Part shown: positions 3,409 to 31,630 of the stretch, piece by piece
How positions within the stretch are numbered: position 1 is the first letter of the stretch
Layout: each line of letters begins with the position of its first letter
Source of the DNA: an uncultured bacterium
GTDB lineage: Bacteria; Eisenbacteria; RBG-16-71-46
Length of the DNA stretch: 38,115 bases
Direction of reading: 5' to 3'
Assembly: GCA_964554725.1 (NCBI GenBank)
Contig: CAZKQE010000001.1
Location: forward strand, 1-38,115
Made by a program: the position numbers and the translations under genes
The notes under the pieces: model-generated
What the model saw: only the letters and a program-made list of their open reading frames with translations
Databases searched by the model: none
What the model was told of the DNA's origin: nothing

Positions 3409-3428
3409 CGCCGGGCGCCCGGCGGTTT
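3409..3428 (+). terminator. Weak terminator-like GC palindrome after the cys operon
   Basis: A perfect 16-bp palindrome CGCCGGGCGCCCGGCG (3409-3424; 6-bp stem, 4-nt loop as RNA) is followed by GTTT, 8 nt after the stop codon. The U tract is short. Confidence 0.25.
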
Positions 3429-3462
3429 GAGCCGGGTCCCGTTCGGCGTTAAGGTCCGGGTC

Positions 3463-5105: not shown

Positions 5106-5636
5106 ATGAAACGATCCCTCGCCCTCATCCTCAGCGCCGTCGTCCTGGCGGCAGCCACGGTCGCTCTGACGCAGACGACCCCGGCGCCGGTCTATGGCGT
5201 GAAGGGGCCCGCCCAGCCGATCGCGTTCAGCCACGAGATCCATGCCGGCAAGCTCGGGATGGACTGCCTCTACTGCCACAGCAGCGCCGAGAAGTCCCAG
5301 ACCGCGAACCTCCCCGCGGTGAGCACCTGCATGGGCTGCCACAAGATCGCGCGCGCGGACCAGCCGGAGATCCAGAAGCTGGCCGGGTACGCGGAGCGCG
5401 GCGAGCCGGTGCCGTGGGTCGAGGTCTACGCGCTGCCGGCGCACGTCAAGTTCAACCACAAGCGGCACGTCAAGGCCGGGATCAAGTGCCAGGACTGCCA
5501 CGGCGCGGTGGAGAAGATGACGGTCGTCCACCAGGTGCCGTCGCTCAAGATGGGCTGGTGCGTCACCTGCCATCGCCAGAACCTCGACCACCCGAAGTTC
5601 CCGGCCAGCATGGACTGCCTGGTCTGCCACCACTAG
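5106..5636 (+). CDS. actA: Alternative Complex III subunit ActA, pentahaem cytochrome c
   Basis: 176 aa with an N-terminal signal/anchor. Five CxxCH motifs are present (CLYCH, CMGCH, CQDCH, CVTCH, CLVCH). It is the first gene of an actABCDEF-ordered cluster. Confidence 0.9.
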   Translation: MKRSLALILSAVVLAAATVALTQTTPAPVYGVKGPAQPIAFSHEIHAGKLGMDCLYCHSSAEKSQTANLPAVSTCMGCHKIARADQPEIQKLAGYAERGEPVPWVEVYALPAHVKFNHKRHVKAGIKCQDCHGAVEKMTVVHQVPSLKMGWCVTCHRQNLDHPKFPASMDCLVCHH

Positions 5637-5644
5637 GGGCGCGC

Positions 5645-8600: not shown

Positions 8601-8756
8601 TCGTGTTCGGCGACCTCGCCGACCCCGAGAGCGCCGTGCACAAGGCGTCCCACGGCGAGCGGCGGTACTGGGCGCTCAACGAGCTGAACACCAAGCCCGG
8701 CGTCACCTACCTGCAGCGGATCCGGCGCGGGACCGGCGCCGTCGAGGAGCAGCCGC

Positions 8757-8764
<8 letters not shown>
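5645..8764 (+). CDS. actB: Alternative Complex III subunit ActB (fused B1 molybdopterin-oxidoreductase-like domain + B2 4-cluster ferredoxin domain)
   Basis: GTG start at 5645, 5 nt after AGGGG. The Tat signal is NRRDFLRLVGIG. The N-terminal CRECPAGCG...CARG is a MopB-type FeS motif. The C-terminal Cys clusters are CTGCSACIVAC, CQHCGDAPCETVCP and CVGTRYCSNNCPY. The upstream part of ORF 5414..8764 overlaps actA and is discarded. Confidence 0.9.
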
Positions 8765-10093
<1,329 letters not shown>

Positions 10094-10097
<4 letters not shown>

Positions 10098-10657
10098 AGC
10101 TCCCGAAGCCGCTCCTCGACCTGGTGGACGCGATCAACGCCGGCCCGCGGATGAAGTACCGCGGCGTGATGGGCGTGTTCTACTACGTGGACGACGTCGC
10201 CGAGACGGTGCGCACGCTGCGCCAGAGCGGCCACCGGGACCTGCGGGTGTTCTCCCCGGTGCCCCATCACGACATCGAGCGCGCGCTCGAACAGGGGCCG
10301 TCGATCGTGCGCTGGGTCACCCTCGGCGGCGCCCTGCTCGGCGTCACCGGCGGGCTCTCGCTGTGCTTCTACTCGGTCTACTCGTGGCCGCTGGTGGTCG
10401 GCGGCAAGGAGCTGTTCTCGCTGCCGCCGTTCGTCGTCATCGGCTACGAGTCCATGATCCTGCTCGGTTCGCTCGCGAACCTGTTCGGCATGCTGGCGCT
10501 GGCGCGGCTGCCGGAGCTCCGCACCTCCGCGCCGCCCGACCCGCGCTTCACCGAGGACCGCATCGGCGTGTGGGTGCCGTGCGAGGGCGAGGCCGCCGCG
10601 CGCGTGCAGGAGCTGCTGCGCGGGCACGGCGCCGAGGAGGTCACCCTCCATGCTTAG
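10094..10657 (+). CDS. actD: Alternative Complex III subunit ActD (DUF3341-like, two TM helices)
   Basis: The start ATG 10094 overlaps the actC stop (ATGA). Sequence MKLPKP...YRGVMGVFYYVDDVAETVRTLRQSGH... has a soluble N-domain followed by two hydrophobic helices. Its position between actC and actE fits ActD. Confidence 0.8.
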
Positions 10658-11195
10658 GAGCGTGATCGCCCTGGTCGCGGCCGCGATCCTCACCCTGTTC
10701 GCCGTCCCCAGCTTCCAGCAGGGGTTCAAGGACGCCGTGAACTCGCTCACCCACCTCGCCTACTATCCGATCCGCGACATGCGGAAGTCGGTGGCGCCGT
10801 CGCCGCAGAAGGGCGTCTACCGGACGCCGGACGAGGCGAGCGTCCCCACCACCGGGAAGGAGCCGGCGATCGACCGCGACCTCGCGGCGACCGTGCTGCG
10901 CAACCCGGTCCCGACCAGCGACGCCTCGGTCGCGCGCGGCGATTCGCTCTACCGTCGCCTGTGTCTGCCGTGCCACGGCGCCGCGCTGGCGGGGGACGGC
11001 CCGGTGGCCGCTCAGTTCATGCCGCCGCCCGACCTGCTCGGGCAGCAGACGCGCGAGCGCCGGGACGGGTTCCTCTATTCCTACATCCGGCACGGCGGCG
11101 TCGTCATGCCGAGCTACGGCTTCCAGCTCAGCGCCGAGGAGGCATGGCACATCGTGAACTTCATCCGTCACCATCAGAAGGCGACCCCGCGGTGA
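10650..11195 (+). CDS. actE: Alternative Complex III subunit ActE, monohaem cytochrome c
   Basis: 181 aa with an N-terminal anchor and a single CLPCH haem motif; the distal Met region is GGVVMPSYG. There is an 8-nt overlap with actD. Confidence 0.85.
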   Translation: MLRSVIALVAAAILTLFAVPSFQQGFKDAVNSLTHLAYYPIRDMRKSVAPSPQKGVYRTPDEASVPTTGKEPAIDRDLAATVLRNPVPTSDASVARGDSLYRRLCLPCHGAALAGDGPVAAQFMPPPDLLGQQTRERRDGFLYSYIRHGGVVMPSYGFQLSAEEAWHIVNFIRHHQKATPR

Positions 11196-12478
11196 GCCAC
11201 GCCCCGACCCCGGTGCCCGCGGCCGAGCGCGAGGCCGTGCTCAAGGACATCGCCGGCCGGCTGCCGGTCACGCCGAACCCCCGCCGCCGTCGCATCTGGG
11301 TGGCGCTCATGGCGGTCGGCATCGTCACCTTCGGCTGGCTGCTGATGACGCAGCCGGAGCGGGCGTGGGGCGCCTGGGCGATCAACTGCCTGTACTGGCT
11401 CGGGATCGCCCAGGGCGCGGTGGTGCTGGCGTGCGCGATCCGGCTCGCGAACGGACGCTGGGCGGGCCCGGTGATGCGCATGGCGGAGTCGCTCTCGGCC
11501 TTCCTGCCCTGGGGGGTCGCCGCGCTCGCCGTGCTGGCGGTCGCCGGCGCGCGGCAGTACCTGCCGTGGATCGAGCATCCGGATGCGCGCCAGGCGCCCT
11601 ATCTCAACTGGCCGTTCCTGGTGCTGCGCACCCTCGCCGGCCAGGCGCTGCTGCTGTGGATGACGCGCGACCTGGTGCGCCTCTCGCTGCGCAGCGACGC
11701 CCACCATCTCAAGGACCACGTGGCCCCCGAGCTCAAGCCCGACTACGAGCGGCTGAGCGCCGGCTGGCGGGGCGACGAGGCGGAGGAGGCGTGGCAGCGT
11801 CACCGTCTCTCGCAGCTCGCGCCCGGCATCGTCGTCGCCTACGCGGTGGTCTACACGCTGCTCGCGTGGGACTTCGTCATGTCGCTGACGCCCGAGTGGG
11901 TGAGCACGCTGTTCGGCTGGTGGTTCTTCATGGGCGCCTTCCTGAGCGGGATCGCGATGACGGCGCTGCTGGTGTCGCGGCTCCGCTCGCGCTACCAGCT
12001 CCACCGCTACATCACGCCCGCCCACCTGTGGGACACCGGCAAGATCGCCTTCGGCTTCTGCATCTTCTGGGTCTACCAGTTCTGGTCCCAGTACCTGCCG
12101 ATCTGGTACGCGAACATGCCGGAGGAGACCGGCTGGGTGTTCCTGCGCTTCGAGGCGCCGTGGCGGACGCTCGGCTTCACGATCTTCACGTTCGTGTTCC
12201 TGGTGCCGTTCCTGGGACTGATGAACATCCACACCAAGCGCAGCCCGTTCTGGCTCGGCACCTTCTCGATCATCATCCTGATCGGCATGTGGATGGAGCG
12301 GCACATCCTCGTCATGCCGTCCCTGAACCCCGACCACGTCTGGATGGGCCTCCCCGAGCTGGGCGTCTCGCTCGGGTTCCTCGGGCTGTTCGGCTGGCGG
12401 GTGCACAACTTCGTCTCGCGCTACCCGATCGTGAAGGTGCCGGACGTCTTAGCCGGCCACGGAGGGCACGGGCACTAG
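11192..12478 (+). CDS. actF: Alternative Complex III subunit ActF (second NrfD-like membrane subunit)
   Basis: The GTG at 11192 overlaps the actE stop (GTGA). A polytopic membrane protein paralogous in character to ActC. Contains the only in-frame TTA codon I found in the window (12449-12451). Confidence 0.85.
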   Translation: MSHAPTPVPAAEREAVLKDIAGRLPVTPNPRRRRIWVALMAVGIVTFGWLLMTQPERAWGAWAINCLYWLGIAQGAVVLACAIRLANGRWAGPVMRMAESLSAFLPWGVAALAVLAVAGARQYLPWIEHPDARQAPYLNWPFLVLRTLAGQALLLWMTRDLVRLSLRSDAHHLKDHVAPELKPDYERLSAGWRGDEAEEAWQRHRLSQLAPGIVVAYAVVYTLLAWDFVMSLTPEWVSTLFGWWFFMGAFLSGIAMTALLVSRLRSRYQLHRYITPAHLWDTGKIAFGFCIFWVYQFWSQYLPIWYANMPEETGWVFLRFEAPWRTLGFTIFTFVFLVPFLGLMNIHTKRSPFWLGTFSIIILIGMWMERHILVMPSLNPDHVWMGLPELGVSLGFLGLFGWRVHNFVSRYPIVKVPDVLAGHGGHGH

Positions 12479-12578: not shown

Positions 12579-12663
12579 GCCGGGATGGTGGAACTGGTCA
12601 GACACAGGGCGCTTAAAACGCCCCGGGGGTGACCCCGTGCAGGTTCGAGTCCTGCTCCCGGCA
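12579..12663 (+). tRNA. tRNA-Leu (anticodon UAA), class II with long variable arm
   Basis: Hand-folded cloverleaf. The acceptor GCCGGGA pairs with TCCCGGC and the discriminator is A. The D stem is GTG/CAC with GG in the loop. The anticodon stem is GGCG G/CGCCC with loop CTTAAAA, placing the anticodon TAA at 12614-12616. The variable arm is GGGG-GTGA-CCCC. The T arm is GCAGG-TTCGAGT-CCTGC. CCA is not fully encoded (the sequence continues CCG). Confidence 0.92.
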
Positions 12664-12718
12664 CCGCGGACCCCGGACCGGCGCGGCCGATACGGCCGGG
12701 CGCCCGGCCCGCTGCGGT

Positions 12719-14233
12719 ATGATGCGCGACATGCCCGTCTCCCCGCTCCCCGCCCCGCCGCCCGCCGCGGCACGCGCACTGCGGTCCCCCGGCGCCGTCC
12801 TGCTCGTCTCCTGCTACGAGCTCGGGCATCAGCCGCACGGGATCGCCCTGCCCGCCGCGTTCCTGCGCCGGGCCGGCTTCGCGCCGGCGACCCTCGATCT
12901 GGCGGTCGAGCCGCTCGACCCGGTCCGGGTCCGCGGGGCGCGGCTGGTCTGCGTCTCGGTGCCCATGCACACCGCGCTGCGGCTCGGCGTGCGTGCGGTG
13001 GCCGGGATCCGCGCCCTCAACCCCGCGGCTCACGTCTGTTTCCACGGGCTCTACGCCGCGCTCAACGCCTCGTGGCTGCTCGAGCACGGGGCGGACTCGG
13101 CGGTGGGGGGCGAGAGCGAGGCGGCGCTGGTCGCGCTCGCCGAGGCGCTGGACGACGGCCGGCCGCCGCGGGTGCCGGGCCTGGCGGTGCGCGGCCGCGC
13201 GGCCGCCCCGCGGCTCGAGCGGCTCGACTTCCCGCCGCCGGTCCGCGACGGGATGCCGCCGCTCGAGCGCTACGCGCGGCTCGAGCACCGGGGGGAGCGC
13301 GTCCGGGTCGGCTACGTCGAGACGACCCGCGGCTGCCGGCACCTGTGCCGGCACTGCCCGATCCCGCCGGTCTACGGCGGCCGCCTGTTCGTGGTGCCGG
13401 TGGCGACGGTGATGGCGGACGTGGAAGGGCTGGTGGCGGCGGGCGCCCGGCACGTCACCTTCGGTGACCCGGACTTCCTCAACGCCCCGACCCACGCGCT
13501 GCGGGTGGCGCGCGCGCTCCACGCGCGGCATCCGGCGCTGACGTTCGACTTCACGGCGAAGATCGAGCATCTGCTTCGGCATCGCGCGCGGCTCCCCGAG
13601 CTGGTCGCGGCCGGCGCGCTGTTCGTGGTCTCGGCGGTCGAGTCGCTCAGCGACCGCGTGCTCGACCACCTCGGCAAGGGGCACACGCGGGCGGACGTGT
13701 TCGAGGCGCTGCGGCTCACCCGTGCCGCGGGGCTCGCGCTGCGGCCGTCGCTGGTCGCCTTCACGCCCTGGACCACGCTCGACGACTACCTCGACGTGCT
13801 CGAGGTCGTGGAGCGCGAGGACCTGGTGGACCATCTGGACCCGGTGCAGTACTCGATCCGGCTGCTGGTGCCGCCCGGGTCGCTGCTGCTCGACCACGCC
13901 GCGCTCCGGCCCTTCCTCGGGCCCTTCGACCCGGCCTCGTTCGGCCACCCGTGGACCCACCCCGACCCGCGGATGGACGCGCTCCACCGCGCGGTCGCCG
14001 ACCGTGTCGCCGCCGCGGGCGCGGCCGGGGAGGACGCGCGCGCCACATTCCTCGCGGTGCACGCGCTGGCGCGCGCCGCGGCGGGCAGGCCGGCGCGGTC
14101 GTCGGACGGGGCGGAGGACGCGGCGGCGCGGCGCCGGCGCGTGCCGCGGCTCACCGAGCCGTGGTTCTGCTGAGCGGAGCCCGCCGAGGGCCGGTTCGGC
14201 CCTCTCGCGACCCCCGGGACCCCCGCCGCATGA
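12719..14233 (+). CDS. Radical SAM protein with B12-binding-like N-domain; probable selenoprotein with C-U-A-E-P tail (UGA 14171-14173 read as Sec; conventional call would end at 14173)
   Basis: ATG 12719 is the first start after the tRNA; ORF-track start 12629 lies inside the tRNA. The CxxxCxxC motif is TTRGCRHLCRHCP. The N-terminal Rossmann-like region is LLVSCYELGHQP...LVCVSVPMH. At the apparent stop the codons read TGC TGA GCG GAG CCC (C-U-A-E-P), and the frame stays open to TGA 14231-14233. Confidence 0.75.
14186..14204 (+). promoter_or_regulatory. SECIS-like stem-loop
   Basis: A perfect hairpin GAGGGCC-GGTTC-GGCCCTC begins 12 nt after the in-frame UGA, with G and U in the apical loop. 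The geometry is compatible with bacterial SECIS elements. Confidence 0.5.
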
Positions 14234-14301
14234 CGGCGTCCCGGCGGCGGGCGCGCCGCGCGCCGGACATGGTAGGGTAGGCCGCGACCCGAGGAGGCCC
14301 C

Positions 14302-14901
14302 GTGAGCGAGCAGGAGATCCGCATCAAGGCCGTGCCGATCGACGCCCAGCGCTGCCGGTTCACCGTGGACCGGCCGGTGCTGGCGGACCGCGCCGTGTTC
14401 TTCCCCGCGGTCGGCAAGGCGGCGGGCTCCCCGCTCGCCGAGGCGCTGTTCGCGCTCCCCGGCGTCTCGGCGGTGCTGGTGTCGCACGACACCGTGACCG
14501 TGACCCGTTCGGGCTACGGGGAATGGCCGGAGCTGGCGCGCCAGGTGGGGGCCGCGATCCGCGCCCAGATGCAGACCGGCGCCGCGCCGGTCGCGGCCGA
14601 CGCGCTCGCGAGCATGCCGGGCGAGGAGGAGATCCGCGCCCGCGTCGAGCGCCTGCTCGAGACCGAGATCAACCCGGCGGTCGGCTCGCACGGCGGCTGG
14701 GTCGAGCTGCTCGGCGTCCAGGGCAACAACGTGTTCCTGCGGCTCGGCGGCGGCTGCCAGGGCTGCGGCATGGCGGACGTCACGCTGAAGCAGGGGATCG
14801 AGACGCTGCTGCGGCAGGAGATCCCCGAGCTGGGCGAGGTGCTGGACCAGACCGATCACGCCGCCGGCCGGAACCCCTACTACGCCCAGTCGAAGAAGTA
14901 G
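14302..14901 (+). CDS. NFU1/NfuA-type iron-sulfur cluster carrier (Nfu_N domain + NifU C-terminal CxxC domain)
   Basis: GTG start at 14302, preceded by GAGGAGG (14291-14297). The N-domain has SPLAEALFALPGVSAVLVSHDTVTVT. The C-domain has EINPAVGSHGGWVELL...LGGGCQGCGMA (CxxC). Confidence 0.85.
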   Translation: MSEQEIRIKAVPIDAQRCRFTVDRPVLADRAVFFPAVGKAAGSPLAEALFALPGVSAVLVSHDTVTVTRSGYGEWPELARQVGAAIRAQMQTGAAPVAADALASMPGEEEIRARVERLLETEINPAVGSHGGWVELLGVQGNNVFLRLGGGCQGCGMADVTLKQGIETLLRQEIPELGEVLDQTDHAAGRNPYYAQSKK

Positions 14902-14905
14902 CCGC

Positions 14906-16222
14906 ATGACCGTCGCCCGCCCCCATCCCGCCCCGCCGGAGGACCGCCGCAACGCCCCGCGGGTGCTGCTGCTGCTGCCGACCGCCTCGTGGCGGGCCGA
15001 GGCGCTGCTCGCCGCCGCCGCGCGGCTCGGCCTTGCGGCGGTGGTGGGGACCGACCGGCCCCTGGTGTGGGCGGAGCGCACCCCGGAGCGGGTGATCTCG
15101 CTCGACTTCGACCGGCCGGAGGCGGCGGCCGCGGCGGTCGCCGCGTTCGCCGCCGGGCGTCCGATCGCCGCGGTGGTGGGGGCCGACGACGAGACGGTCG
15201 CGCTGGCGGCGGCGATCGCCGGCCGGCTCGGGCTCGCGCACGACCCGGTCGCCGCACTCGCCGCCACGCGCGACAAGCTCCGCCAGCGCGAGATCCTCGC
15301 CGACGCCGGCCTCCCGGTGCCGCGGTTCGCGCGCTGCCGCCTCGACGAGGCCCCGGCCGCGGTCGCCGCCCGGGTGGGGCTCCCGTGCGTGCTCAAGCCC
15401 CGGCGCCTGTCGGCGAGCCGCGGGGTGATGCGCGCGGACGACGTGGCCGGGCTCGGCGCGGCGATGCGCCGGCTCGCCGCGCTGCTCGCCTCGCCCGCGG
15501 TCGGGGCGTGCGGCGAGTGGGCGGAGACCGCGGTCGCGGAGGCGTTCGTCCCCGGGCGGGAGGTGGCGCTCGAGGGCATGCTGCACGAGGGCCGCCTGCG
15601 GGTGCTCGCCCTGTTCGACAAGCCCGACCCGCTCGACGGGCCGACGTTCGAGGAGACGCTCTACGTCACCCCCTCGCGGCTGCCGGCCGCGGCGCAGGCG
15701 GCGCTCGCCGACACCGTCCAGCGCGCGACCCGTGCGCTCGGGCTCGCCCGCGGGCCGGTCCACGCCGAGCTGCGGATCGCGGGCGAGGCGCCGTGGCTGA
15801 TCGAGGTGGCGGCCCGCCCGATCGGCGGCCTGTGCTCGCGGGTCCTGCGCTTCGACGGCGGACGCTCGCTCGAGGAGCTCACGCTGATGTCGGCGCTCGG
15901 CCGCGACCCCGGCGGCATCGCCCGCGAGGCGGGGGCGGCCGGCGTGATGATGGTCCCCATCCCCGGGGCCGGCGTGGTGGAACGGGTCGAGGGCGTCGCC
16001 GAGGCCGCGGCGGTGCCCGGGATCGACCAGGTCGTCGTCACCGCCCATCCCGGCGAGCGGCTGACACCGTTCCCCGAGGGGTCGCGCTATCCCGGCTTCC
16101 TGTTCGCCCGGGGCGCGACGCCGGACACGGTCGAGGCCGCGTTGCGGGAGGCGCACCGGCGCCTGCGCTTCGTGCTCGCGGCGGAGCCGTCGCCCGCGGA
16201 CGCCGCGGTGGCGTCCGGATGA
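14906..16222 (+). CDS. ATP-grasp domain protein (carboxylate-amine / L-amino-acid-ligase-like)
   Basis: 438 aa. The pre-ATP-grasp region is VLLLLPT...AVVGADDETV. ATP-grasp signatures are DKLRQREILADAGLPVP, PCVLKPRRLSASRGV, EAFVPGREVALEG and GPVHAELRI...PWLIEVAARPIGG. It starts 4 nt after the nfu stop. Confidence 0.8.
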   Translation: MTVARPHPAPPEDRRNAPRVLLLLPTASWRAEALLAAAARLGLAAVVGTDRPLVWAERTPERVISLDFDRPEAAAAAVAAFAAGRPIAAVVGADDETVALAAAIAGRLGLAHDPVAALAATRDKLRQREILADAGLPVPRFARCRLDEAPAAVAARVGLPCVLKPRRLSASRGVMRADDVAGLGAAMRRLAALLASPAVGACGEWAETAVAEAFVPGREVALEGMLHEGRLRVLALFDKPDPLDGPTFEETLYVTPSRLPAAAQAALADTVQRATRALGLARGPVHAELRIAGEAPWLIEVAARPIGGLCSRVLRFDGGRSLEELTLMSALGRDPGGIAREAGAAGVMMVPIPGAGVVERVEGVAEAAAVPGIDQVVVTAHPGERLTPFPEGSRYPGFLFARGATPDTVEAALREAHRRLRFVLAAEPSPADAAVASG

Positions 16223-16797
16223 GCCGGTCCCGCGCGCCCGGCGGCCGGCGCCTCGTCGTCGGGCTGGCGCTCGCGCTGCTGCCGTGCGCCGGCTGCGCCG
16301 CCCCGCCCCCCGAGCCGCCGCCGGCGGTCGAGCCGACGGCGGAGATCCGGCCGGCCACCGTGGCCCAGGTGCAGTCCGCCGTGCGGGCCGGCGGGGCCCG
16401 TGCCGTGCTGCTGAACGTGTGGGCGACCTGGTGCGTGCCGTGCCGGGAGGAGTTCCCGGACCTCATGCGCATCCGGCGCGAGTACCGGGAGCGCGGCCTG
16501 CGGCTGGTGCTGGTCTCGGCGGACATCGACAGCCAGGTCCCCGAGGCGCAGCGCTTCCTGCGGTCGCAGGGGGTCGATTTCTTGACCTATCTCAAACAGG
16601 GTGCTGACATGGCGTTCATCGACAGCATCGATGCTCGCTGGAGCGGTGCGCTGCCCGCCACCGTCCTCTACGACGAGGCGGGCCGCAAGGTCTGGTTCCA
16701 CGAAGGCAGGACCACGTACGACACGTTGAAGGTCCGGATCGACGCGCTGCTCTCCGCCGCGCGGCGACCGGCACGTCCGACCGAGGAGGCGAGATGA
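16219..16797 (+). CDS. TlpA/ResA-like thiol:disulfide oxidoreductase, probable lipoprotein
   Basis: ATG 16219 overlaps the ATP-grasp stop (ATGA). The signal peptide has a Cys-containing cleavage region LLPCAGC. The thioredoxin motif is WATWCVPC. Confidence 0.8.
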   Translation: MSRSRAPGGRRLVVGLALALLPCAGCAAPPPEPPPAVEPTAEIRPATVAQVQSAVRAGGARAVLLNVWATWCVPCREEFPDLMRIRREYRERGLRLVLVSADIDSQVPEAQRFLRSQGVDFLTYLKQGADMAFIDSIDARWSGALPATVLYDEAGRKVWFHEGRTTYDTLKVRIDALLSAARRPARPTEEAR

Positions 16798-17432
16798 ACC
16801 CGAGTGCGATCCGGTGGGTGGCGGCAGGGATGCTGATGTTGGCGGCGACCGCGGGGGCGCAGGAGGCTCCCAAGGCGCTGGCGATCGGGAAGAGCGCGCC
16901 GATGGCCACCGCGAAGATGACCGGCGTGGACGGCAAGGCGGTGTCGATCGCCGACGTCAAGGGCGAGAAGGGGACGCTGGTGGTGTTCACCTGCAACTCC
17001 TGCCCGTGGGTGAAGGCCTGGGAGTCGCGCATCACGGAGCTCGGCAACACGTACCTGAAGCAGGGCGTCGGCGTCATCGCCATCAACCCCAACGACCCGG
17101 CGGTGAAGGCCGACGACGACATGGCGGCGATGCAGGAGCGGGCGAAGATGCTGGGGCTCGAGTTCCCCTACGTGATGGACGCCACCTCGGACGTGGCGCG
17201 CGCCTTCGGCGCCACCCGCACCCCCGAGGCCTTCCTGTTCGACGCCAAGGGCAAGCTGGTGTACCACGGAGCGGTGGACGACAACGCCCACAAGCCGGCC
17301 GAGGTCACCGCGCGCTGGCTGAACGACGCGCTGGCGGCCACCGCGAGCGGCAAGCCGGTGGCGATCCGCGAGACCAAGTCGCTCGGCTGCACGATCAAGT
17401 TCCGCGGCAAGGCGGCGACCAGCGCCTCGTAG
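16794..17432 (+). CDS. Exported thioredoxin-fold (redoxin/AhpC-TSA-like) protein
   Basis: ATG 16794 overlaps the previous stop (ATGA). The signal peptide ends AATAGAQEA. The CxxC motif is VVFTCNSCPWV. The conserved tail is GATRTPEAFLFDAKGKLVYHGAVDDN. Confidence 0.8.
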   Translation: MNPSAIRWVAAGMLMLAATAGAQEAPKALAIGKSAPMATAKMTGVDGKAVSIADVKGEKGTLVVFTCNSCPWVKAWESRITELGNTYLKQGVGVIAINPNDPAVKADDDMAAMQERAKMLGLEFPYVMDATSDVARAFGATRTPEAFLFDAKGKLVYHGAVDDNAHKPAEVTARWLNDALAATASGKPVAIRETKSLGCTIKFRGKAATSAS

Positions 17433-17447
17433 CGGCCGGACGCGCGC

Positions 17448-17487
17448 GACGCCCGGGGGCCATCGGCTCCCGGGCGTCGTCGTCTTT
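17448..17487 (+). terminator. Intrinsic terminator candidate for the radical-SAM/thioredoxin operon
   Basis: GACGCCCGGGGGCC-ATC-GGCTCCCGGGCGTC (17448-17478) forms a 14-bp stem including one G-U pair and has a triloop. It is followed by GTCGTCTTT and lies 16 nt after the stop codon. A second hairpin CCCCCCGG-GTCG-CCGGGGGG follows at 17488-17507. Confidence 0.55.
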
Positions 17488-17640: not shown

Positions 17641-20628
17641 TCAACGGGCGCGCACCAGGGTCCGGGACAGCGCCGCGCCGCCCGCCGTCAGGCGGACGAA
17701 GTAGGTGCCGCTCGCGAGCGACGCGCCGCGGTCGTCGCGGCCGTCCCAGTCGACCCCATGGCGTCCCGCCGCGCGGTGTCCGTCCACCAGGGCGCGCACG
17801 GCGCGGCCGGCGACGTCGTAGAGGACCAGGCGCACCGGTCCGGCGGCCGGCACGGCGTAGTCGAGCCGCAGCGCCCCGGGCGCCGGATGCCCGGAGGCCA
17901 GCCGCAGCGCGAGGGCGGCGGGCGCCGGCGCTTCCCCGACCGCGACCACGTCGCTGAAGGCGAGCAGCTCGAGGTCGTCCACCGCGGCCTCGACCAGCGA
18001 GCCCGAGCCGGCGTCCTCGGCGATGAAACGGAGCCGGATCTGGCTCGTGGGCTCGACGTAGTCCGCGATCCGGAACAGCACGCGCCGCCAGCTCGCGTCG
18101 CTCGCGGTCGTGTTCTCGACGCTCACCCAGTCGAATCCGCCGTCGTTCGAGATGTCCACCCGCCAGACGTCGAGCCCCGGGCTCGACCCCTGGTTGTTCG
18201 TGTACCAGCGCCAGTAGCTGATGACCGGGTCGTGCGTGCCGTCGGGGGTGGCGTCGAGGAAGGCGGTGGTGAGCGTCGTGCGCCCGCCGTCCACGTCGTT
18301 CGTGCCGGCCGGGGAGCCCAGGGTCGCGTTGCCGGTGACGAAGCACTGGAGCCCGGCCACCGTGTGGTCGTCCTCGGGCTGGACGTCGATGCCGGCGGTC
18401 ACCTGGGTGCCGATCGGGTCGGCCCGCACCCAGAGACCGGTGGTCGCGTTGTCCCCGGCCGCTCCCACGGTCCAGCCGGGATCGACCTCCATGTCGCGCA
18501 CCAGCAGCGTGGTCGCCGGTCCGGCGAGGAAGCGGTGGGTCGCGGAGGCCGGCGCCGCCGCCGGGTGGGTGACGGACTCGCCGTAGGAGTCCGCCGCGCG
18601 GACGTAGTAGCGCACGACCGCGCCGGAGACGCCGGGGATGGAGGCGGTGAACTCGTCCGGGTTCCCGGTCGGGGACATCGGCACGCTGCCGAAGGCGCCG
18701 TCGTTGAAGGCGTAGTGGAGGCTGGGCGCGCCCGCGAGCGCCCCGAACGGGCCGGCGTAGGTCACCGTGGCGGTGACCGGGAAGGGGCCGGCGCCGGGCT
18801 GGTCGGCCAGCGGGGCGTGGACGATGTCCATGAAGTAGCCGGTGCCGATGCCGTGCGCGTTGAAGGCGGCGACGATCGCGGCGCCGTTCGGCGTGCCGTT
18901 CCCGAGATCGGCGTCGTCGTCGTCGGCGACCAGCGTCTCGATGAAGTACTCGTTCATCGCCACGCCGTCGTCCGGGTCGTCGGGGATCCCGTACTTGGCG
19001 AAGTGGGAGAGCTGCGCGGCGACCGCGAGGCCCGCCGACTGCCGCAGGTCCCAGAACGCGCCGCCGATGATGAGCCCGGTGACGTGGCCGTCGCCGCTCG
19101 CGTCCTCGGGCCACCGGCGGGTGTTGTCGATCGTGCGCAGGACCGTCGCGGGGCCGAAGAAACCCTTGCCGACGTTGGGGTCGTCCTGGATCATCGCCGC
19201 CAGCACGTCCGCCATCCCCTCGTGCAGGGCGCCGTTGTTCATCCCCGACCCCTGCCCGGCCTGCTGGTAGATCTCGTGGTTCACCATGTGGCCGTACTCG
19301 TGGTAGACGACGTCGGGCATGGTGGCGGTGTTCGGGCAGCCGCCGCCGGCGGCGTAGAAGTTCACCGAGCCGTCTGCCGTGCTGTAGAAGGCGTTGCAGG
19401 TGCTGGCGATGTTGACCTTGCAGGGCACCACGTAGTCCACGCCCACCGCCCCGGGGTCCAGCGTCTTCACGTAGTCGTGGACGAGCTGGACGTGGTGGAA
19501 GCCGTCGCGCTCGGCATCGTGCGAGTTCGCGGCGGTGAAGGCGATGTCCACCGTCGCCGGGTCGGCGGCCGGGGTCGAGAACGAGGCGTCCGGCACCCCG
19601 TCCTGCCGGTGGACGTCCACGAAGGGACCGCGCAGCTGGGCGCTCACCGTGACCGCGCCGCCGGGCGAGTGTCCGTAGGCGCCGCCGGCGTCGGTGGTCA
19701 CCGCCGTCGGGCCGACGTTCACGGTGAGGCCGCGCAGCGGCCGGGCGACGGTCGCGTCGGTCGGCAGCAGCGGATGGACCGTGCCGGTCGCGGTGCCGGT
19801 GATCGCGTGGCGGACGTGGTTGCGGCGCCACAGCACCTCCCCGGTCGCGGCGTCGACCAGCGTGCGCCAGTCGCCCGGCGGATCGGCGGTCACCACGCGC
19901 GCCTCGGTGACGACCCGCAGGCCCGGGCCCTCCGCCGCGACGAGCGGCAGCAGCGCGAGCGTCTCGGCCCCCTCGACCCGGTCGCGCGCCGGGTCGAAGG
20001 CGAGGCCGGCGCGGGCGGCGGCCCGCGCGACCGACACCGGCAGCCGGCCCGCGACCGGCAGCTCGTGGTCGGCGACGCGGTGGGCGTCGGCGCCGAAGGA
20101 GAGCAGCCGGCCGTTCCCCGACACGCGGAACTCCCAGTCGCCGAACAGCACCGGCAGGCCGGCCACGAGCTGGCGGAAGCTCACGTACCAGGTGCCGCGC
20201 ACCCGCTGCGCGCGCGTCCGCTCGAGGACCGGGGCGCCGAACAGCCCGGGGTGGCCGGCGATGAAGGCGCGCAGGGCCGCCTCGACCGCGTCCGCACGGT
20301 CGGCGAAGCCGGCGAGCGGGATCGCCGGGCCCAGCGCACGGTGCGGGCTCGCGGTGCGCGCGTTCCACAGCGCGGTCCATGCCCCGTGCCGGTCGGTGAA
20401 CCCGCGCCACGGCGCGGCGGCCTCGAGCCGGGCGCGGGTCGCGGCATCCGCCGGGACCACCGCGCCCGCGCCGGGGGCGCGGATCCCCGCGTCCGTCGTC
20501 GCGTCGGGGGCGCGCACCGCGCGGGCGGGGACGGCGGCGAGCGTGAGGGCGAGGAGCGCGGGGATCGCGAACGCGGACCGGGCGCCGGGGGCGCGGAGCG
20601 CGGCGGAACGGCGGGGTCGGCGGTCCAT
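17641..20628 (-). CDS. Secreted zinc metalloprotease (gluzincin, M4/M36 thermolysin-fungalysin-like) with C-terminal FlgD-Ig / T9SS-CTD-like domain
   Basis: 995 aa and the only convincing minus-strand gene. GGGAGG lies upstream of the ATG (20628). It has a signal peptide and an FTP/PepSY-like propeptide region. The catalytic motifs are VVYHEYGHMVNHE (HExxH) plus LHEGMADV (third Zn ligand Glu). The C-terminus is VRLVLYDVAGRAVRAL...VDWDGRDDRGASLASGTYFVRLTAGG...LVRAR. Confidence 0.8.
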   Translation of the reverse strand: MDRRPRRSAALRAPGARSAFAIPALLALTLAAVPARAVRAPDATTDAGIRAPGAGAVVPADAATRARLEAAAPWRGFTDRHGAWTALWNARTASPHRALGPAIPLAGFADRADAVEAALRAFIAGHPGLFGAPVLERTRAQRVRGTWYVSFRQLVAGLPVLFGDWEFRVSGNGRLLSFGADAHRVADHELPVAGRLPVSVARAAARAGLAFDPARDRVEGAETLALLPLVAAEGPGLRVVTEARVVTADPPGDWRTLVDAATGEVLWRRNHVRHAITGTATGTVHPLLPTDATVARPLRGLTVNVGPTAVTTDAGGAYGHSPGGAVTVSAQLRGPFVDVHRQDGVPDASFSTPAADPATVDIAFTAANSHDAERDGFHHVQLVHDYVKTLDPGAVGVDYVVPCKVNIASTCNAFYSTADGSVNFYAAGGGCPNTATMPDVVYHEYGHMVNHEIYQQAGQGSGMNNGALHEGMADVLAAMIQDDPNVGKGFFGPATVLRTIDNTRRWPEDASGDGHVTGLIIGGAFWDLRQSAGLAVAAQLSHFAKYGIPDDPDDGVAMNEYFIETLVADDDDADLGNGTPNGAAIVAAFNAHGIGTGYFMDIVHAPLADQPGAGPFPVTATVTYAGPFGALAGAPSLHYAFNDGAFGSVPMSPTGNPDEFTASIPGVSGAVVRYYVRAADSYGESVTHPAAAPASATHRFLAGPATTLLVRDMEVDPGWTVGAAGDNATTGLWVRADPIGTQVTAGIDVQPEDDHTVAGLQCFVTGNATLGSPAGTNDVDGGRTTLTTAFLDATPDGTHDPVISYWRWYTNNQGSSPGLDVWRVDISNDGGFDWVSVENTTASDASWRRVLFRIADYVEPTSQIRLRFIAEDAGSGSLVEAAVDDLELLAFSDVVAVGEAPAPAALALRLASGHPAPGALRLDYAVPAAGPVRLVLYDVAGRAVRALVDGHRAAGRHGVDWDGRDDRGASLASGTYFVRLTAGGAALSRTLVRAR

Positions 20629-20862
20629 CGGGCCTCCCTCTGAAACCGGGCGGCGCCCGGGGCGGTCCTAGCGGGTGGGGCGTGGGCCGCGCCGCCGCCG
20701 GGGCGCGCGCGGGCCGGTGGATGGTGCCGGGAGCATGACACAGCGGAGGCGGCGCGCTCAACGTCCGGCGCGGGGCGGGGTGCAACCCCGCGGCCCCGCG
20801 GGGCGTAACAGCGGGGCGGGGGCCGGGCCCCCGACGACGGCGATACTCCTGGGGAGGTGGCG

Positions 20863-21954
20863 ATGGAAGGTCGGACGGGATCCCGTCGTTCGCGCCGGGT
20901 GTGGATCTGGTCCGGCGTCGGTGTGCTGGTGGTCGCCGGCGTGGTCGTGGGCGTGCTCCTGGTGCGCAACGCCGGCGGCAACGGCAAGAAGAAGGACGGC
21001 GAGACCGGGCCCACGGCGGCCCCGGTCGAGCTGACGGTGGTCCAGCGCGGCCGCATCGCGACCTGGCTCCAGACCACCACCACGCTCGAGGCGCAGAACG
21101 CCGCCGTGCTGGTGGCGCGCGGACAGGGCGAGGTGGTGGCGCTGCTCGCGGAGGAGGGCCACTGGGTCGAGAAGGGCGCCGTGCTGGCGCGGCTCGAGGA
21201 CACCGAGGCCCGGCTGGCGGCCGAACGGGCCGAGCTGGCGGTCCAGGTGGCGCGCCGCGACGCCGAGCGCGGCCGCCAGCTCGGCCAGCAGGGCTTCCTC
21301 AGCACCAAGGACCTGGACGACCTCGACCTCAAGCTGCGCGGCGCCGAAGTCGATCTCGCACAGCGGCGTCACGACCTCGCCGGGATGCGGATCGTCGCGC
21401 CGTTCGAGGGCCGTGTCACCGGGCGGATGATCCAGCTGGGCGAGACCGTGCTGCCGGGCCGCGAGTGCTTCCGTCTGGCGGACGTGCGGCCGATGCTGGC
21501 GCGCGTCTACTTCCCCGAGCGCGAACTGCCCCGCGTCCGGGTCGGGCAGAGCGCGAGCCTCGAGGTGGACGCCCACCCCGGCCGGGAGTTCCCGGCCCGC
21601 GTCACCCTCGTGAACCCGGTCGTGGACCACAGCAACGGCACCTTCAAGGTGACGCTCGAGGTCCGCGATGCCGACGGACTGCTGCGGCCCGGCAGCTTCG
21701 CGCGGGCGCGCATCCGCACCGGCGACTTCGACGACGCGCTTCTCATCCCGCGCCGCGCGGCGGTCCACGAGGACGGCGAGAACTTCGTCTTCGTCGCGCG
21801 GGGGGACACGGTGGCGCGCACGGCGGTCCGCATCGGCGCCACCTCCGGCGACACGTCGCAGATCCTGGCGGGGTTGAGCGCGGGCGACAGCATCGTGACC
21901 GTGGGTCAGGGCGGCCTCAAGCAGGGCTCGCGGATCAAGGCGGTCCGGCTCTAG
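20863..21954 (+). CDS. RND efflux membrane fusion protein (periplasmic adaptor, HlyD/AcrA family)
   Basis: ATG 20863 lies 5 nt after GGAGG; GTG 20857 is an alternative start. It has an N-terminal TM anchor, a coiled-coil hairpin (ARLAAERAELAVQVARRDAERG...) and a lipoyl/beta-barrel region with IVAPFEGRVTG and the ending IVTVGQGGLKQGSRI. Confidence 0.85.
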   Translation: MEGRTGSRRSRRVWIWSGVGVLVVAGVVVGVLLVRNAGGNGKKKDGETGPTAAPVELTVVQRGRIATWLQTTTTLEAQNAAVLVARGQGEVVALLAEEGHWVEKGAVLARLEDTEARLAAERAELAVQVARRDAERGRQLGQQGFLSTKDLDDLDLKLRGAEVDLAQRRHDLAGMRIVAPFEGRVTGRMIQLGETVLPGRECFRLADVRPMLARVYFPERELPRVRVGQSASLEVDAHPGREFPARVTLVNPVVDHSNGTFKVTLEVRDADGLLRPGSFARARIRTGDFDDALLIPRRAAVHEDGENFVFVARGDTVARTAVRIGATSGDTSQILAGLSAGDSIVTVGQGGLKQGSRIKAVRL

Positions 21955-22002
21955 CCGGGCGCCGGCCGCCGGCCGCGTCCGACCTCGGCGAAGGGAGCGT
22001 CC

Positions 22003-25000: not shown

Positions 25001-25164
25001 TGACCACGGTGCTGGGGCTGCTGCCGATGGCGCTCGGGTTCGGCGAGGGTGCGGAGGTGCGCGCGCCGCTCGCGCTGACGTTGATCGGCGGGCTCACGAC
25101 CGGGACCGTGCTGACCCTGGTCGTGCTGCCGGTCGTCTACGCGACCCTCGACCGCAGGCCGTGA
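22003..25164 (+). CDS. RND efflux transporter, inner-membrane pump (AcrB/HAE1-like), paralogue 1
   Basis: 1053 aa with AAGGGAG upstream. The N-terminus IRRPVTVFMTTLGVVIFG and the segments GGLALAVGMLVDNSIVVLE and VLAGIVVNNGIVLIDY are typical of 12-TM RND pumps. Confidence 0.9.
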   Translation: MRIIDGSIRRPVTVFMTTLGVVIFGAVAATRLDVDLLPDISYPSLTVRTDLPDAAPGDVEQFVTRPVEEGVGVVPGLVRLHSISRPGQSEVTLEFASGTRMDLASLAVREKLDLVTLPREAKRPAVLRFDPSLDPIMRMRLSGGGNLQRLRRIAEQTVKSDLEGAPGVAAVKVVGGEEQEIGVEVDAGRLSAVGLTLADVSRRLADENINLAGGSLTEGESEYLIRATNQFADPREIGRVILASRPAGLVRLSDVATVGRVAKDREVVARLDGAEAVEIAIYKEGDANTVSVARAVQRRVDRLQLPPPMKLVKVADQSRFIQNAVNDVTWSAGLGGVLAVLVLFAFLRRLGVTLVVALSIPVSVFATFIIMYRGGLSLNLMSLGGLALAVGMLVDNSIVVLESVFRSREEGDAPRVAASRGAATVAMAVAASTLTTVAVFFPLVFVEGLAGQLIRDQALTITFSLLASLAVALTLVPTLSAMGVRAPAGDAPGAAGERRRGRWATSLGWALGVLLYLPRTVGRGAAWLGRSGRPAVERSLRPFDLAYGAVERHYPSLVRGALRHRGRVLAASTLGLALTLAVGLMLPRNLFPPFSQGEFHFNVRLAEGTALHVTDATLERIAATVRDDPRVRFVYTSAGQTDLSAFAGSAREANRGQIAVQLRRATDRSAEEDVAGRLRRAMDAVPGLGYDFERPSLLSVRSPVEVEVYAYDLDTLRSVSQAVAARLAAVAGIEDLESSMRLGDPEVQIAFDRDRLAAMALDPAGASRMVRNAVQGEAATQFSDLDRKLDVRVRASEGERSVVAELANLEVGRNQGRPVPLGAVAAVSISRGPAEIRRISQQRAAVVSANLEGRDLASAARDIQAALDGLAVPPGVRVTLAGQNSELAESFDSLRFALILAVFLVYLVMASQFESLLHPFVIMFTLPMAIVGVVLSLLVTGTSVNVMVLIGMVVLAGIVVNNGIVLIDYTKQLRARGVAKVEALVEAGTVRLRPILMTTMTTVLGLLPMALGFGEGAEVRAPLALTLIGGLTTGTVLTLVVLPVVYATLDRRP

Positions 25165-25174
25165 GGCGACGGCC

Positions 25175-31624: not shown

Positions 31625-31630
31625 GAGGGC

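Follow-up and report, generated by a model that had tools for sequence, protein, structure and literature searches.

The window analysed here is a 38,115-nucleotide stretch of DNA from an uncultured bacterium of the lineage Eisenbacteria. It carries five successive open reading frames on the + strand, and a program-made ORF check of the window returned the same coordinates as an earlier, sequence-only reading. The first gene encodes a CUAEP-tail radical SAM (rSAM) selenoprotein of 504 aa with Sec at residue 485 (positions 12719 to 14233); its table 11 ORF spans 12719–14173 and was extended past the TGA at 14171–14173 to the TGA at 14231–14233. Downstream lie genes for an NFU1/NfuA-type Fe-S carrier (Nfu; 14302 to 14901, 199 aa), an L-amino-acid-ligase-type ATP-grasp enzyme (LAL; 14906 to 16222, 438 aa), an exported TlpA/ResA-like thioredoxin-fold protein (16219 to 16797, 192 aa), and an exported redoxin-fold protein (16794 to 17432, 212 aa). 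The extended rSAM stop and the Nfu start are 68 nt apart and a 4-nt spacer, TAGCCGCATG, separates Nfu from LAL, while ATGA overlaps join LAL to the TlpA-like gene and the TlpA-like gene to the redoxin gene. Beyond the last stop, a 16-bp G+C-rich hairpin (17446 to 17480, + strand; fold z = −2.8 relative to shuffles) has a U-poor tail and therefore was not listed by the terminator pattern scan; it is probably a terminator, common to a convergent gene ending at 17641. The sequence check thus bore out the original description for the five genes, both gaps and both overlaps, the UGA in frame, and the hairpin at the end. Pattern scans of the locus also gave three weak terminator-like sites within coding sequence, against an expectation of 0.7 ± 1.0, and no match to a sigma-70-like promoter. 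Upstream of the rSAM gene, 53 nt before its start, is a tRNA-Leu(UAA) gene (12579–12665) that the earlier reading had not listed.

Two findings support decoding of the UGA at 14171–14173 (+ strand) as selenocysteine: a covarying SECIS hairpin, and selA, which the genome carries on contig C475. The rSAM protein ends in a PRLTEPWFC-U-AEP tail, and reading on past the TGA gives EPWFC-U-AEPAEGRFGPLATPGTPAA, which places Cys484 next to Sec485. Among the 82 homologous loci with a complete tail, this position is TGA in 62 and Cys (CCAEP) in 20. The SECIS-type hairpin (14186 to 14204, + strand), GAGGGCCG-GUU-CGGCCCUC, begins 12 nt past the UGA. Across 58 homologues, compensatory double changes were seen in 46 cells, where shuffling gave 16.8 ± 3.2 and none of 500 shuffles reached 46, and the register of the hairpin beat slid controls; a search of Rfam matched the hairpin to no family. 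The Cys forms, which have no SECIS, still carry CCAEPTxxQ(F/L)xPL, suggesting that the post-Sec tail is functional as a peptide.

At 681 bits against a cut-off of 500, the rSAM protein belongs fully to the CUAEP-tail family NF040546, from which it is no different at the protein level, motif and Sec both being in place. This family has been catalogued as uncharacterised (Haft 2022 preprint). The literature searched from that preprint onward described no function, partners, or neighbourhood for it, as the sequence-only reading had supposed. An AF2 model (pLDDT 90, pTM 0.88, disordered beyond residue 488) revealed a Rossmann-like N-domain followed by a radical SAM barrel bearing C206-x3-C210-x2-C213. 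The top PDB fold match was AprD4 (6fd2; Foldseek E = 1e-17, TM 0.64–0.70), with TsrM, MgmA, OxsB, and MiaB as further neighbours. The class-B-like enzymes AprD4, TsrM, MgmA, and OxsB share this two-domain fold with the window protein, but sequence identity to them is only 15–22%. Pfam assigned both Radical_SAM and B12-binding, the latter at 32.6 against a cut-off of 32.1; AprD4 is itself not known to depend on cobalamin, and cobalamin use by the window enzyme is not indicated.

The second-best family was ArsL (NF040542), which matched over nearly the full length at 293.6 bits (cut-off 450), while the third-best reached only 55.7 bits. Identity to five ArsL/RCCLKC proteins was 32–34% in the A3 alignment, and tblastn/BLASTP gave 33–36% over about 400 residues. 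Judged by sequence, the CUAEP family is the sister of ArsL, a relationship missed in the earlier reading. ArsL, a radical SAM enzyme with an RCCLKC tail, belongs to arsinothricin biosynthesis, and experiments have established that it transfers a 3-amino-3-carboxypropyl (ACP) unit from SAM and that its tail cysteines bind the substrate atom (Yao et al. 2024; Serrano et al. 2026 preprints). Removal of its C-terminal tail left the Fe/S content unchanged (Yao et al. 2024; Serrano et al. 2026), and ArsL itself therefore has no auxiliary cluster. The analogy drawn from ArsL stands on this one characterised enzyme. The two families share the two-domain layout and the CX3CX2C motif, and the arsenic-binding Cys-Cys dyad of ArsL aligns with the Cys-Sec dyad of the window protein. 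In contrast, the window protein does not have the RCCLKC motif and falls below the ArsL HMM cut-off; its CU-AEP follows a linker about 60 residues longer, without the third Cys, and Cys32, His37, His84, His212, and His322 are specific to the CUAEP family. Systematic differences also surround the cluster motif (HCPIPPVY in CUAEP proteins versus YCSV(Y/F)AAY in ArsL, KGHTR versus K-x-x-x-V, and VPMHT versus VPLFD), so the mode of SAM cleavage could differ from that of ArsL.

Genomic context separates the two families as well. None of ArsM, ArsQ, ArsN1, ArsC, ArsB, ACR3, MIP, ArsR, or COG0523 occurred within 10 kb of 87 CUAEP loci, whereas all five ArsL loci inspected lay within arsenic islands; the partners of ArsL are ArsM and ArsN, those of the CUAEP proteins Nfu and DUF169. 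Genuine ArsL-type islands in Priestia, Bacillus cereus, Alicyclobacillus, and Pantoea contain, besides MFS, ArsM, and ArsN1 genes, an ATP-grasp ligase of LAL-like architecture. These ligases are only 22% identical to the window LAL, and the parallel is one of kind and not of orthology.

The Nfu protein matched Pfam Nfu_N (48 bits) and NifU (80 bits), and its PDB matches were the N- and C-domains of NFU1. It resembles NFU1/NfuA in this domain pair, in the CxxC of the NifU domain (C152-x-x-C155), and in an NfuA-like C-terminal TDHxxGxNPYY; it differs in falling below the NfuA equivalog cut-offs, in an extra conserved Cys18 in the Nfu_N domain, and in its persistent linkage to the LAL or rSAM gene. 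No other Nfu-type gene was detected in the genome, and rSAM-negative relatives retain an Nfu homologue sited elsewhere; the gene is therefore module-linked and not an extra copy. Its earlier description as a dedicated Fe-S donor is borne out in the linkage, but not in the sense of an additional copy. LAL scored above cut-off for ATP-grasp_4, LAL_C2, and ATPgrasp_N, and matched in the PDB the Bacillus licheniformis enzyme BL00235 (3vot; 5e-35, full-length) and BacD (2e-13). The three-domain architecture is common to BL00235, BacD/YwfE (bacilysin), and DdaF (dapdiamide), but LAL reaches no NCBIfam equivalog cut-off and forms its own orthologous group, 47–75% identical across phyla and strictly tied to the CUAEP rSAM gene. 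BacD and DdaF join an amino acid to a non-proteinogenic warhead, and we propose the same role for LAL.

The trio of rSAM, Nfu, and LAL genes recurs in at least eight phyla. We compared 84 rSAM loci from Rokubacteria/Methylomirabilota, Acidobacteriota, Nitrospirota, Planctomycetota, Myxococcota, Poribacteria, and Eisenbacteria, and found Nfu in 40, LAL in 40, and DUF169, a protein with four invariant Cys and two His, in 28. When only the 47 loci flanked on each side by at least 3 kb were counted, 37 had at least one partner within 4 kb, and Nfu adjoined the rSAM gene in 25. Among 41 relatives, LAL was present in 15 of 17 rSAM-positive and 0 of 24 rSAM-negative genomes (Fisher p = 2e-9, with no phylogenetic correction). 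Where LAL is not adjacent to the rSAM gene in other phyla, an orthologue (47–64% identity) occurs elsewhere in 12 of 13 genomes, and a two-domain Nfu lies directly upstream of the unlinked LAL in 8 of 11. In planctomycete loci the rSAM gene stands beside DUF169, a PLP decarboxylase, and an FGE-like gene, not near LAL; genes for transporters of the MFS/ATG22 type stand beside several CUAEP loci and beside the gene of Thermomicrobium roseum. Genes 1–3 are thus a widespread, hitherto undescribed three-gene module, and the proposal that rSAM, Nfu, and ATP-grasp enzyme form a coupled, unassigned pathway is upheld by the phylum range and the strict genome-level profile.

From what was observed, namely the gene content, the decoding of Sec, the conservation and co-occurrence of the genes, and their homology to ArsL and L-amino-acid ligases, we derive a plausible, if tentative, scheme for this module: an ArsL-like ACP transfer followed by ligation. 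The rSAM [4Fe-4S] cluster would cut SAM at the C-gamma–S bond to give MTA and an ACP unit, which would be joined to a soft atom gripped by the flexible Cys484-Sec485 tail. The family-specific N-domain residues Cys32, His37, and His84 may help to hold this atom, which could be a chalcogen, or a metal or metalloid other than arsenic. The product would be 2-amino-4-(X)-butanoate, which LAL would couple to a second amino acid, while Nfu would load or repair an oxygen-labile (or consumed) rSAM cluster. How SAM is cut, what X stands for, in which order the steps run, and that a dipeptide results are what we infer. Cross-phylum conservation at 53–77% identity is unusual for an antibiotic-type pathway and counts against the ArsL-like reading, as do the arsenic-free surroundings of the CUAEP loci and the planctomycete partner genes, while the exporter genes beside several loci speak for it.

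The Cys-Sec pair might instead act as a selenenylsulfide shuttle of electrons or a hydrogen atom at the active site and not as a substrate holder, in the manner of thioredoxin reductase with its GCUG tail or ribonucleotide reductase with its C-terminal Cys pair, with a 5'-deoxyadenosyl radical acting on an amino acid or a ligase-made dipeptide. We regard this as possible but doubtful. The canonical CX3CX2C motif, the ordinary rSAM enzymes among the fold neighbours (AprD4, TsrM, MgmA, OxsB, MiaB), the cluster surroundings unlike those of ArsL, the lack of metalloid genes near CUAEP loci, and the Cys-for-Sec exchange in 20 of 82 loci, typical of redox selenoproteins, would all suit it. It sits less well with ArsL being far nearer than any canonical family (293.6 bits versus at most 55.7), with the register of the dyad with the arsenic-binding one, and with the otherwise organometallic contexts of Cys-Sec dyads in HgcA, MerT, and MerB-like proteins (Haft 2022). 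Insertion of sulfur or selenium seems unlikely: here a SAM-derived radical would attack and consume a bound S or Se, yielding a homocysteine- or selenohomocysteine-type amino acid. Cys32, Cys484, and Sec485, possibly with His, would bind either a per(seleno)sulfide or an auxiliary Fe-S(e) cluster, and Nfu would restore the cluster after its loss, a service that NfuA performs for lipoyl synthase. Nfu linkage across phyla is consistent with such a role, as are the Cys and His residues of DUF169 and the MiaB-type methylthiotransferases, with their N-domain auxiliary cluster, among the fold neighbours. Cys32, which ArsL does not have, is present in 82 of 84 members, but it is the single conserved N-domain Cys and is missing from the other two. 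Furthermore, tail-less ArsL keeps its Fe/S content, Nfu goes with LAL and not with rSAM when the genes separate, and making homocysteine from SAM offers no obvious benefit. The ACP-transfer scheme is our preferred, though tentative, reading of the trio's chemistry.

Two further proposals concern what the genes act on and how many belong together. That rSAM and LAL modify a ribosomal peptide, Nfu, or the rSAM tail itself, in RiPP-like or LysW/LysX carrier-protein chemistry, appears very improbable. RiPP pathways do include ATP-grasp and rSAM enzymes, Nfu and LAL remain neighbours independently of the rSAM gene, and the residues after Sec show conservation at the peptide level; however, no small ORF beside the rSAM gene is conserved in the 84 loci, small clusters all being antisense shadows of large genes, which makes a classical RiPP cluster unlikely, as had been argued before. 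LAL moreover has the architecture of a free-amino-acid ligase (LAL_C2, ATPgrasp_N, full-length BL00235 match), and RimK/LysX models give it only about 20–22 bits. The sequence-only reading had placed all five genes in one pathway, tying a cytoplasmic rSAM/ligase product to exported thiol-disulfide chemistry, for example in envelope or cofactor modification. The ATGA overlaps, the single terminal hairpin, and the same five-gene order in genus-level relatives and metagenome contigs L004 and L008 agree with this, but we consider it improbable in view of the distribution of the last two genes. The TlpA-like protein has an N-terminal hydrophobic signal, a possible lipobox, and WCVPC; the redoxin protein has a signal peptide, CNSC, and a conserved C-terminal LGC(S/T)IKFR. 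Pfam assigned both to Redoxin/AhpC-TSA (Redoxin 43 bits for the former; Redoxin 69 and AhpC-TSA 67 bits for the latter). They share thioredoxin fold, CxxC motifs, and export signals with TlpA/ResA/DsbE, but score far below the NCBIfam cut-offs for all three (e.g., TlpA 64 versus 230). The pair occurs in 32 of 41 relatives, and 17 of these 32 have no rSAM gene; it is not significantly associated with that gene (Fisher p = 0.26), and no rSAM locus from any other phylum contains it. Of the gene neighbourhood first suggested, Nfu and ATP-grasp thus recur across phyla but the TlpA-like gene does not. The pair assorts independently of the module, yet it is not tied to cytochrome c maturation loci either, having no constant neighbour. 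The locus is very probably a composite of two units, with the rSAM/Nfu/LAL trio as a functional unit in itself, and the supposed coupling to extracytoplasmic chemistry is not supported. Genes 4 and 5 are a separate exported pair, common in this order, which the names of the closest hits point to as Candidatus Eisenbacteria, and lineage-specific neighbours of the module: the TlpA-like gene is always paired with the redoxin gene in the relatives, module or no module, and it is only in the genus of the window that the pair adjoins the module, being unlinked in every other genus and, in genome G020, lying 1 Mb away.

The five co-directional open reading frames that the sequence-only reading had described as an operon were all recovered on the forward strand: a radical SAM (rSAM) gene at 12719..14233, nfu at 14302..14901, an L-amino-acid-ligase-type ATP-grasp gene (LAL) at 14906..16222, and genes for an exported TlpA-like protein and an exported redoxin at 16219..16797 and 16794..17432, respectively. 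The reported junctions (68 nt from rSAM to nfu, 4 nt from nfu to LAL, then two ATGA overlaps) were likewise reproduced, and a 16-bp G+C hairpin at 17446-17480 follows the last stop codon. The rSAM protein scored 681.1 bits with NF040546 (674.8 bits in the genome search) against a curated cut-off of 500, its residues 27-492 covering model positions 1-465 of 468. The second-best model, NF040542 for the arsinothricin enzyme ArsL, covered nearly its whole length at 293.6 bits, below the membership cut-off of 450, and the third reached only 55.7 bits. PF04055 (Radical SAM) was matched at 46.8 bits versus a gathering threshold of 29.5, with the CX3CX2C motif at C206-x3-C210-x2-C213; PF02310 (B12-binding) scored 32.6 versus a cut-off of 32.1, and all class B NCBIfam models remained far under their cut-offs. 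The AlphaFold2 model, based on 44 homologues, was confident overall (pLDDT 90, pTM 0.88), with intermediate confidence at PRLTEPWFCU and disorder after residue 488. Its closest fold match was AprD4, and TsrM, MgmA, OxsB, and MiaB were also among the top matches; the PDB copy searched contained no ArsL structure. The family comprises at least 8000 clusters at 90% identity (7969 of 8000 scored candidates match at E <= 1e-20), and when a single genome was scanned for each GTDB species, at least 583 CUAEP rSAM loci were confirmed.

Under translation table 11 the rSAM frame ends at TGA 14171-14173, and readthrough of this codon yields ...PRLTEPWFC-U-AEPAEGRFGPLATPGTPAA, ending at TGA 14231-14233. 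The extension places the C-terminal C-U/C-A-E-P motif (...EPWFC-U-AEP), found in 82 homologues, around a Cys484-Sec485 dyad. A SECIS-type hairpin, GAGGGCCG-GUU-CGGCCCUC, begins 12 nt past the UGA. Since fold energy alone is not significant in G+C-rich DNA (the window is ~74% G+C), the region was aligned from 58 homologues and its base pairs were counted. Compensatory changes appeared in five of the seven pairs, doubly changed cells numbered 46 against 16.8 +/- 3.2 in shuffled alignments (0 of 500 shuffles reached the observed value), and the given register was better than every slid one. The tail codon of the 82 complete-tail loci is TGA in 62 and Cys in 20, nearly all of the latter in Nitrospirota. 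These Cys forms keep CCAEPTxxQ(F/L)xPL with no need of a SECIS, which indicates that the residues after the dyad are conserved as protein. The genome itself contains selA, and neither selB nor tRNA-Sec was found in its 78%-complete assembly; among 41 relatives of the same order or class, selA is present in 38 and selB exceeds the cut-off in 33. Tracking of the rSAM gene by the Sec machinery was rejected, as both genes occur in most of these relatives whether the rSAM gene is present or absent. The in-frame UGA, the covarying hairpin, the Cys orthologues, and selA in the genome together mark the protein as a bacterial selenoprotein. An Rfam search returned a tRNA as its sole match and no catalogued SECIS family.

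Neighbourhoods were analyzed for the best 80 of the at least 583 loci plus metagenome contigs. Clustering of all flanking open reading frames, combined with tblastn, disclosed three recurrent partners among 84 loci: Nfu (40), LAL (40), and DUF169 (28). When the comparison was confined to the 47 loci flanked by 3 kb or more of sequence on each side, the number with a partner gene inside 4 kb of the rSAM gene was 26 for LAL, 25 for Nfu, 15 for DUF169, and 37 for any of the three; the Gemmatimonadota in this set have none of them adjoining it. The order is rSAM-Nfu-LAL in the window and in Rokubacteria, LAL-rSAM-Nfu in Blastocatellia, rSAM-DUF169-LAL in Nitrospirota, and LAL-Nfu-rSAM in sister genera. 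Such shuffling is the pattern expected of functional coupling, not of frozen synteny.

The association extends to whole genomes. A LAL orthologue is present in 15 of 17 rSAM-positive relatives and 0 of 24 rSAM-negative ones (Fisher p 2e-9, uncorrected for phylogeny), always on the contig of the rSAM gene apart from two fragmentary assemblies. Among 13 genomes (Gemmatimonadota, Poribacteria, and Planctomycetota) with no LAL adjoining the rSAM gene, 12 encode an orthologue elsewhere (47-64% identity), and a two-domain Nfu (47-54% identity along its full length) lies directly upstream of the distant LAL in 8 of 11 places. The three genes are thus retained as a set, Nfu having as close a tie to the ligase as it has to the rSAM gene. 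Distant Nfu-LAL pairs of this kind were seen on Gemmatimonadota and Planctomycetota contigs L137-L146, for example at L141:5636-8348 and L142:5227-7172, and their Nfu orthologues share a conserved N-domain Cys18 (C-R-F-T-V-D-R-P).

The Nfu of the window is an NFU1/NfuA-type Fe-S carrier (PF01106, 80.4 bits; PF08712, 48.0 bits) with an invariant CxxC at C152/C155. It had been proposed as a dedicated Fe-S donor; its linkage to the module is borne out, and the idea of an extra, dedicated copy was dropped, as the genome yielded no other Nfu-type gene and a homologue is kept in rSAM-negative relatives. Gene 3 displays the full LAL architecture, with ATPgrasp_N (36.0 bits), ATP-grasp_4 (94.9 bits), and LAL_C2 (62.3 bits) all above their cut-offs, and it resembles the solved ligases BL00235 (3vot; 5e-35 over residues 61-422) and BacD (2e-13). 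On this architecture and homology it is a predicted L-amino acid ligase. The window's LAL is closer to Gemmatimonadota orthologues (up to 64% identity; genomes G044 and G045) than to those of sister genera within the same family (48-56%; G015-G024). This similarity, along with the order rSAM-Nfu-LAL versus LAL-Nfu-rSAM, suggests that the module of this genus may have been acquired or replaced horizontally.

DUF169 (PF02596), encoded at L005:9962-10675 and in 27 further loci, is the family's fourth recurrent partner; it is characteristic of Nitrospirota and Planctomycetota, and no copy was found in the window's genome. Its invariant residues, four Cys and two His, suggest a predicted metal or Fe-S site; the literature offers weak leads only, namely a position adjoining hgcAB in Nitrospina and an entry in one selenium co-occurrence list. 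MFS/ATG22-type exporter genes flank the Blastocatellia loci, and one Rokubacteria locus type has an additional M20 peptidase, MFS transporter, and AMP-binding enzyme. Four Planctomycetota loci (L013, L023, L068, and L084) share a string of rSAM, DUF169, a 157-aa protein, a PLP decarboxylase of the Orn/DAP/Arg type, and an FGE-sulfatase-like protein, in a conserved region ~1-4 kb downstream from rSAM. This string suggests an alternative downstream route for the rSAM product, by decarboxylation. Overall, the partner genes fit small-molecule amino-acid chemistry with export. A Sec-form CUAEP rSAM (...ESWFC-U-AEPLEDP...) also lies at L120:7932-9440 on megaplasmid NC_011961 of Thermomicrobium roseum DSM 5159, annotated as truncated at the UGA and placed between PLP aminotransferase and MFS transporter genes, the latter of the same exporter type as in Blastocatellia. 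No LAL was found on this replicon, the one searched for this species. As a cultured thermophile, T. roseum could provide an experimental system.

ArsL, with ~150 catalogued relatives, is the only canonical-fold radical SAM enzyme currently known to transfer SAM's 3-amino-3-carboxypropyl (ACP) unit. It cleaves SAM to MTA and the ACP unit, which becomes bonded to As(III) held by three Cys of the RCCLKC tail (Yao et al. 2024; Serrano et al. 2026, preprints), reportedly by way of an Fe-C(gamma) organometallic intermediate attacked by arsenite (Serrano et al. 2026). Alignment of five plasmid ArsL-family genes (33-36% identity, tblastn) with ten CUAEP members revealed a common domain layout, cluster motif, and C-terminal vicinal dyad, together with many shared core residues. 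In contrast, Cys32 and His37 (S-C-Y-E-L-G-H-Q-P), His84 (V-P-M-H-T), His212 (H-C-P-I-P-P), and the His of G-H322-T-R are nearly invariant in and specific to CUAEP proteins; ArsL has Thr/Ile/Asn/Val, Phe/Tyr, Phe, Tyr, and a non-His residue at the respective positions. The CUAEP linker is ~60 residues longer than that of ArsL, and AEP follows the dyad. The RCCLKC motif is absent from the window's tail, FCUAEP, of which only the vicinal dyad aligns with ArsL; the third tail Cys of ArsL is missing from CUAEP proteins. One reading of these residues is that the CUAEP acceptor site has been rebuilt for a different atom, which would be bound by two soft tail ligands plus the Cys and His residues of the N-domain.

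The genomic settings of the two families differ as well. All five ArsL loci inspected lie in arsenic islands, whereas tblastn with nine arsenic gene types gave no match in the window or within 10 kb of 87 CUAEP loci, and an arsenic link for the CUAEP module was rejected. An ATP-grasp ligase is also encoded in four of these five ArsL loci, namely those of Priestia, Bacillus cereus, Alicyclobacillus, and Pantoea, at L121:2732-3955, L122:1435-2658, L123:2427-3659, and L125:6452-7768 on the plasmid contigs. These ligases contain an ATP-grasp_4 core with sub-threshold LAL_C2/ATPgrasp_N and have MFS, ArsM, aquaporin, COG0523, and ArsN1 genes beside them. No such ligase occurs in the canonical Pseudomonas arsQLM cluster. 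Identity of the four ligases to the window's LAL is only 22%, so the pairing is either independent in origin or very old. The recurrence supports the idea that ligases may act on the amino-acid products of the ArsL/CUAEP enzyme clade. The ligase in true ArsL islands also hints at peptide forms of arsinothricin-type compounds, comparable to phosphinothricin in bialaphos, and this could be of practical value for genome mining. A literature search found no paper linking arsinothricin with ATP-grasp enzymes.

The mechanism we tentatively regard as most likely is an ArsL-like reaction in which the ACP unit would be transferred to a soft atom, other than arsenic, that sits on the Cys-Sec tail, the product then being ligated to a dipeptide and Nfu serving the rSAM cluster. 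That this product is a new class of natural product, with ACP bonded to Se, Te, S, Sb, or a thiophilic metal and later made into a dipeptide, is possible but doubtful. The vicinal dyad could instead be the redox tail of a canonical enzyme releasing 5'-dA, a rather unlikely alternative. Sacrificial insertion of S or Se, to which the tie between Nfu and the rSAM gene could be compatible, appears unlikely given the equally tight tie between Nfu and the ligase.

A single five-gene pathway, as the sequence-only reading had it, is favored by the gene overlaps and is very unlikely on the assortment of the last two genes. Their products are exported thioredoxin-fold proteins (WCVPC and CNSC motifs) that match only general Redoxin/AhpC-TSA Pfam models and fall below the equivalog cut-offs for TlpA (64 vs 230), ResA (53 vs 170), and DsbE (44 vs 123) in gene 4 and for ResA (50 vs 170) in gene 5. 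The neighbourhood comparison that had been proposed did recover the co-occurrence of Nfu and ATP-grasp genes with the CUAEP/CCAEP homologues, but among 84 loci the TlpA-like and redoxin genes were near rSAM only on L004 and L008, the closest two of the contigs. In the relatives, redoxin always follows the TlpA-like gene and is present in 15 of 17 rSAM-positive and 17 of 24 rSAM-negative genomes (Fisher p 0.26). The pair adjoins the module in the window's own genus only and is located away from it in G015, G017, G020 (1 Mb apart), G021, G023, and G024; it is a genus-specific downstream neighbour. No gene, those for cytochrome maturation and ACIII included, was found to be a constant third partner of the pair, and in 2 of 12 genomes it lies ~3 kb from the ThiSF-M48-ActB genes. 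Redoxin orthologues with in-frame TGAs were considered as selenoproteins and rejected on translation, the TGAs being stop codons or upstream, not at the CxxC. The conserved, unassigned pathway is real but comprises three genes rather than five, and in other lineages DUF169 makes a fourth. Modification of a peptide or protein by the module is highly improbable: as had been argued from this locus, a classical RiPP cluster finds no support, and the 84 loci contain no conserved small precursor open reading frame, only antisense shadows.

The CUAEP family is sister to ArsL and far larger; at roughly three in four of the loci analyzed it is a selenoprotein, and no study of it is known. If the module does make such a new class of natural product, ArsL-type carbon-heteroatom bond formation would have a second, much more widely distributed branch, with hundreds of species from soil and aquatic habitats in at least eight phyla. 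The product of the module, once shown, would tell whether carbon-heteroatom bonding by ACP transfer is a general strategy, explain the retention of a rare Cys-Sec dyad, and establish what the conserved ligase, this subtype of Nfu, and DUF169 do. New here are the independent assortment of the thioredoxin-fold pair, the genome-level co-occurrence of unlinked LAL and rSAM genes, the Nfu-LAL pairs, the ATP-grasp partner in true ArsL islands, the absence of arsenic genes as a quantitative result, the covariation test of the SECIS hairpin, and the family-specific Cys/His set. For annotation, the result cautions that tight gene overlap should not be taken to mean one pathway until assortment has been checked.

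A promoter scan of this 74% G+C DNA found none. A tRNA-Leu gene ends 53 nt upstream of the rSAM start, and the operon for alternative complex III (ACIII) directly upstream of the locus (5414-12478) encodes ActB with molybdopterin and 4Fe-4S domains, NrfD-type ActC, ActD, the cytochrome c ActE, and ActF. The ACIII-then-rSAM order recurs on contigs L002 and L004, where a Metallophos/FlgD_ig gene replaces the tRNA-Leu gene. Further upstream, ThiS-like, ThiF/MoeB-like, and rhodanese parts are fused in a single open reading frame (1914-3401), followed by an M48 peptidase gene (3427-4950); this ThiSF-M48-ActB arrangement was also observed in relatives G016 and G019. Downstream, several large secreted proteins with FlgD_ig-type C-terminal domains are encoded at 17641-20628 (-) and 28427-32908 (+), and between them lie a HlyD-type membrane-fusion gene and two AcrB-type RND genes (20857-28207).
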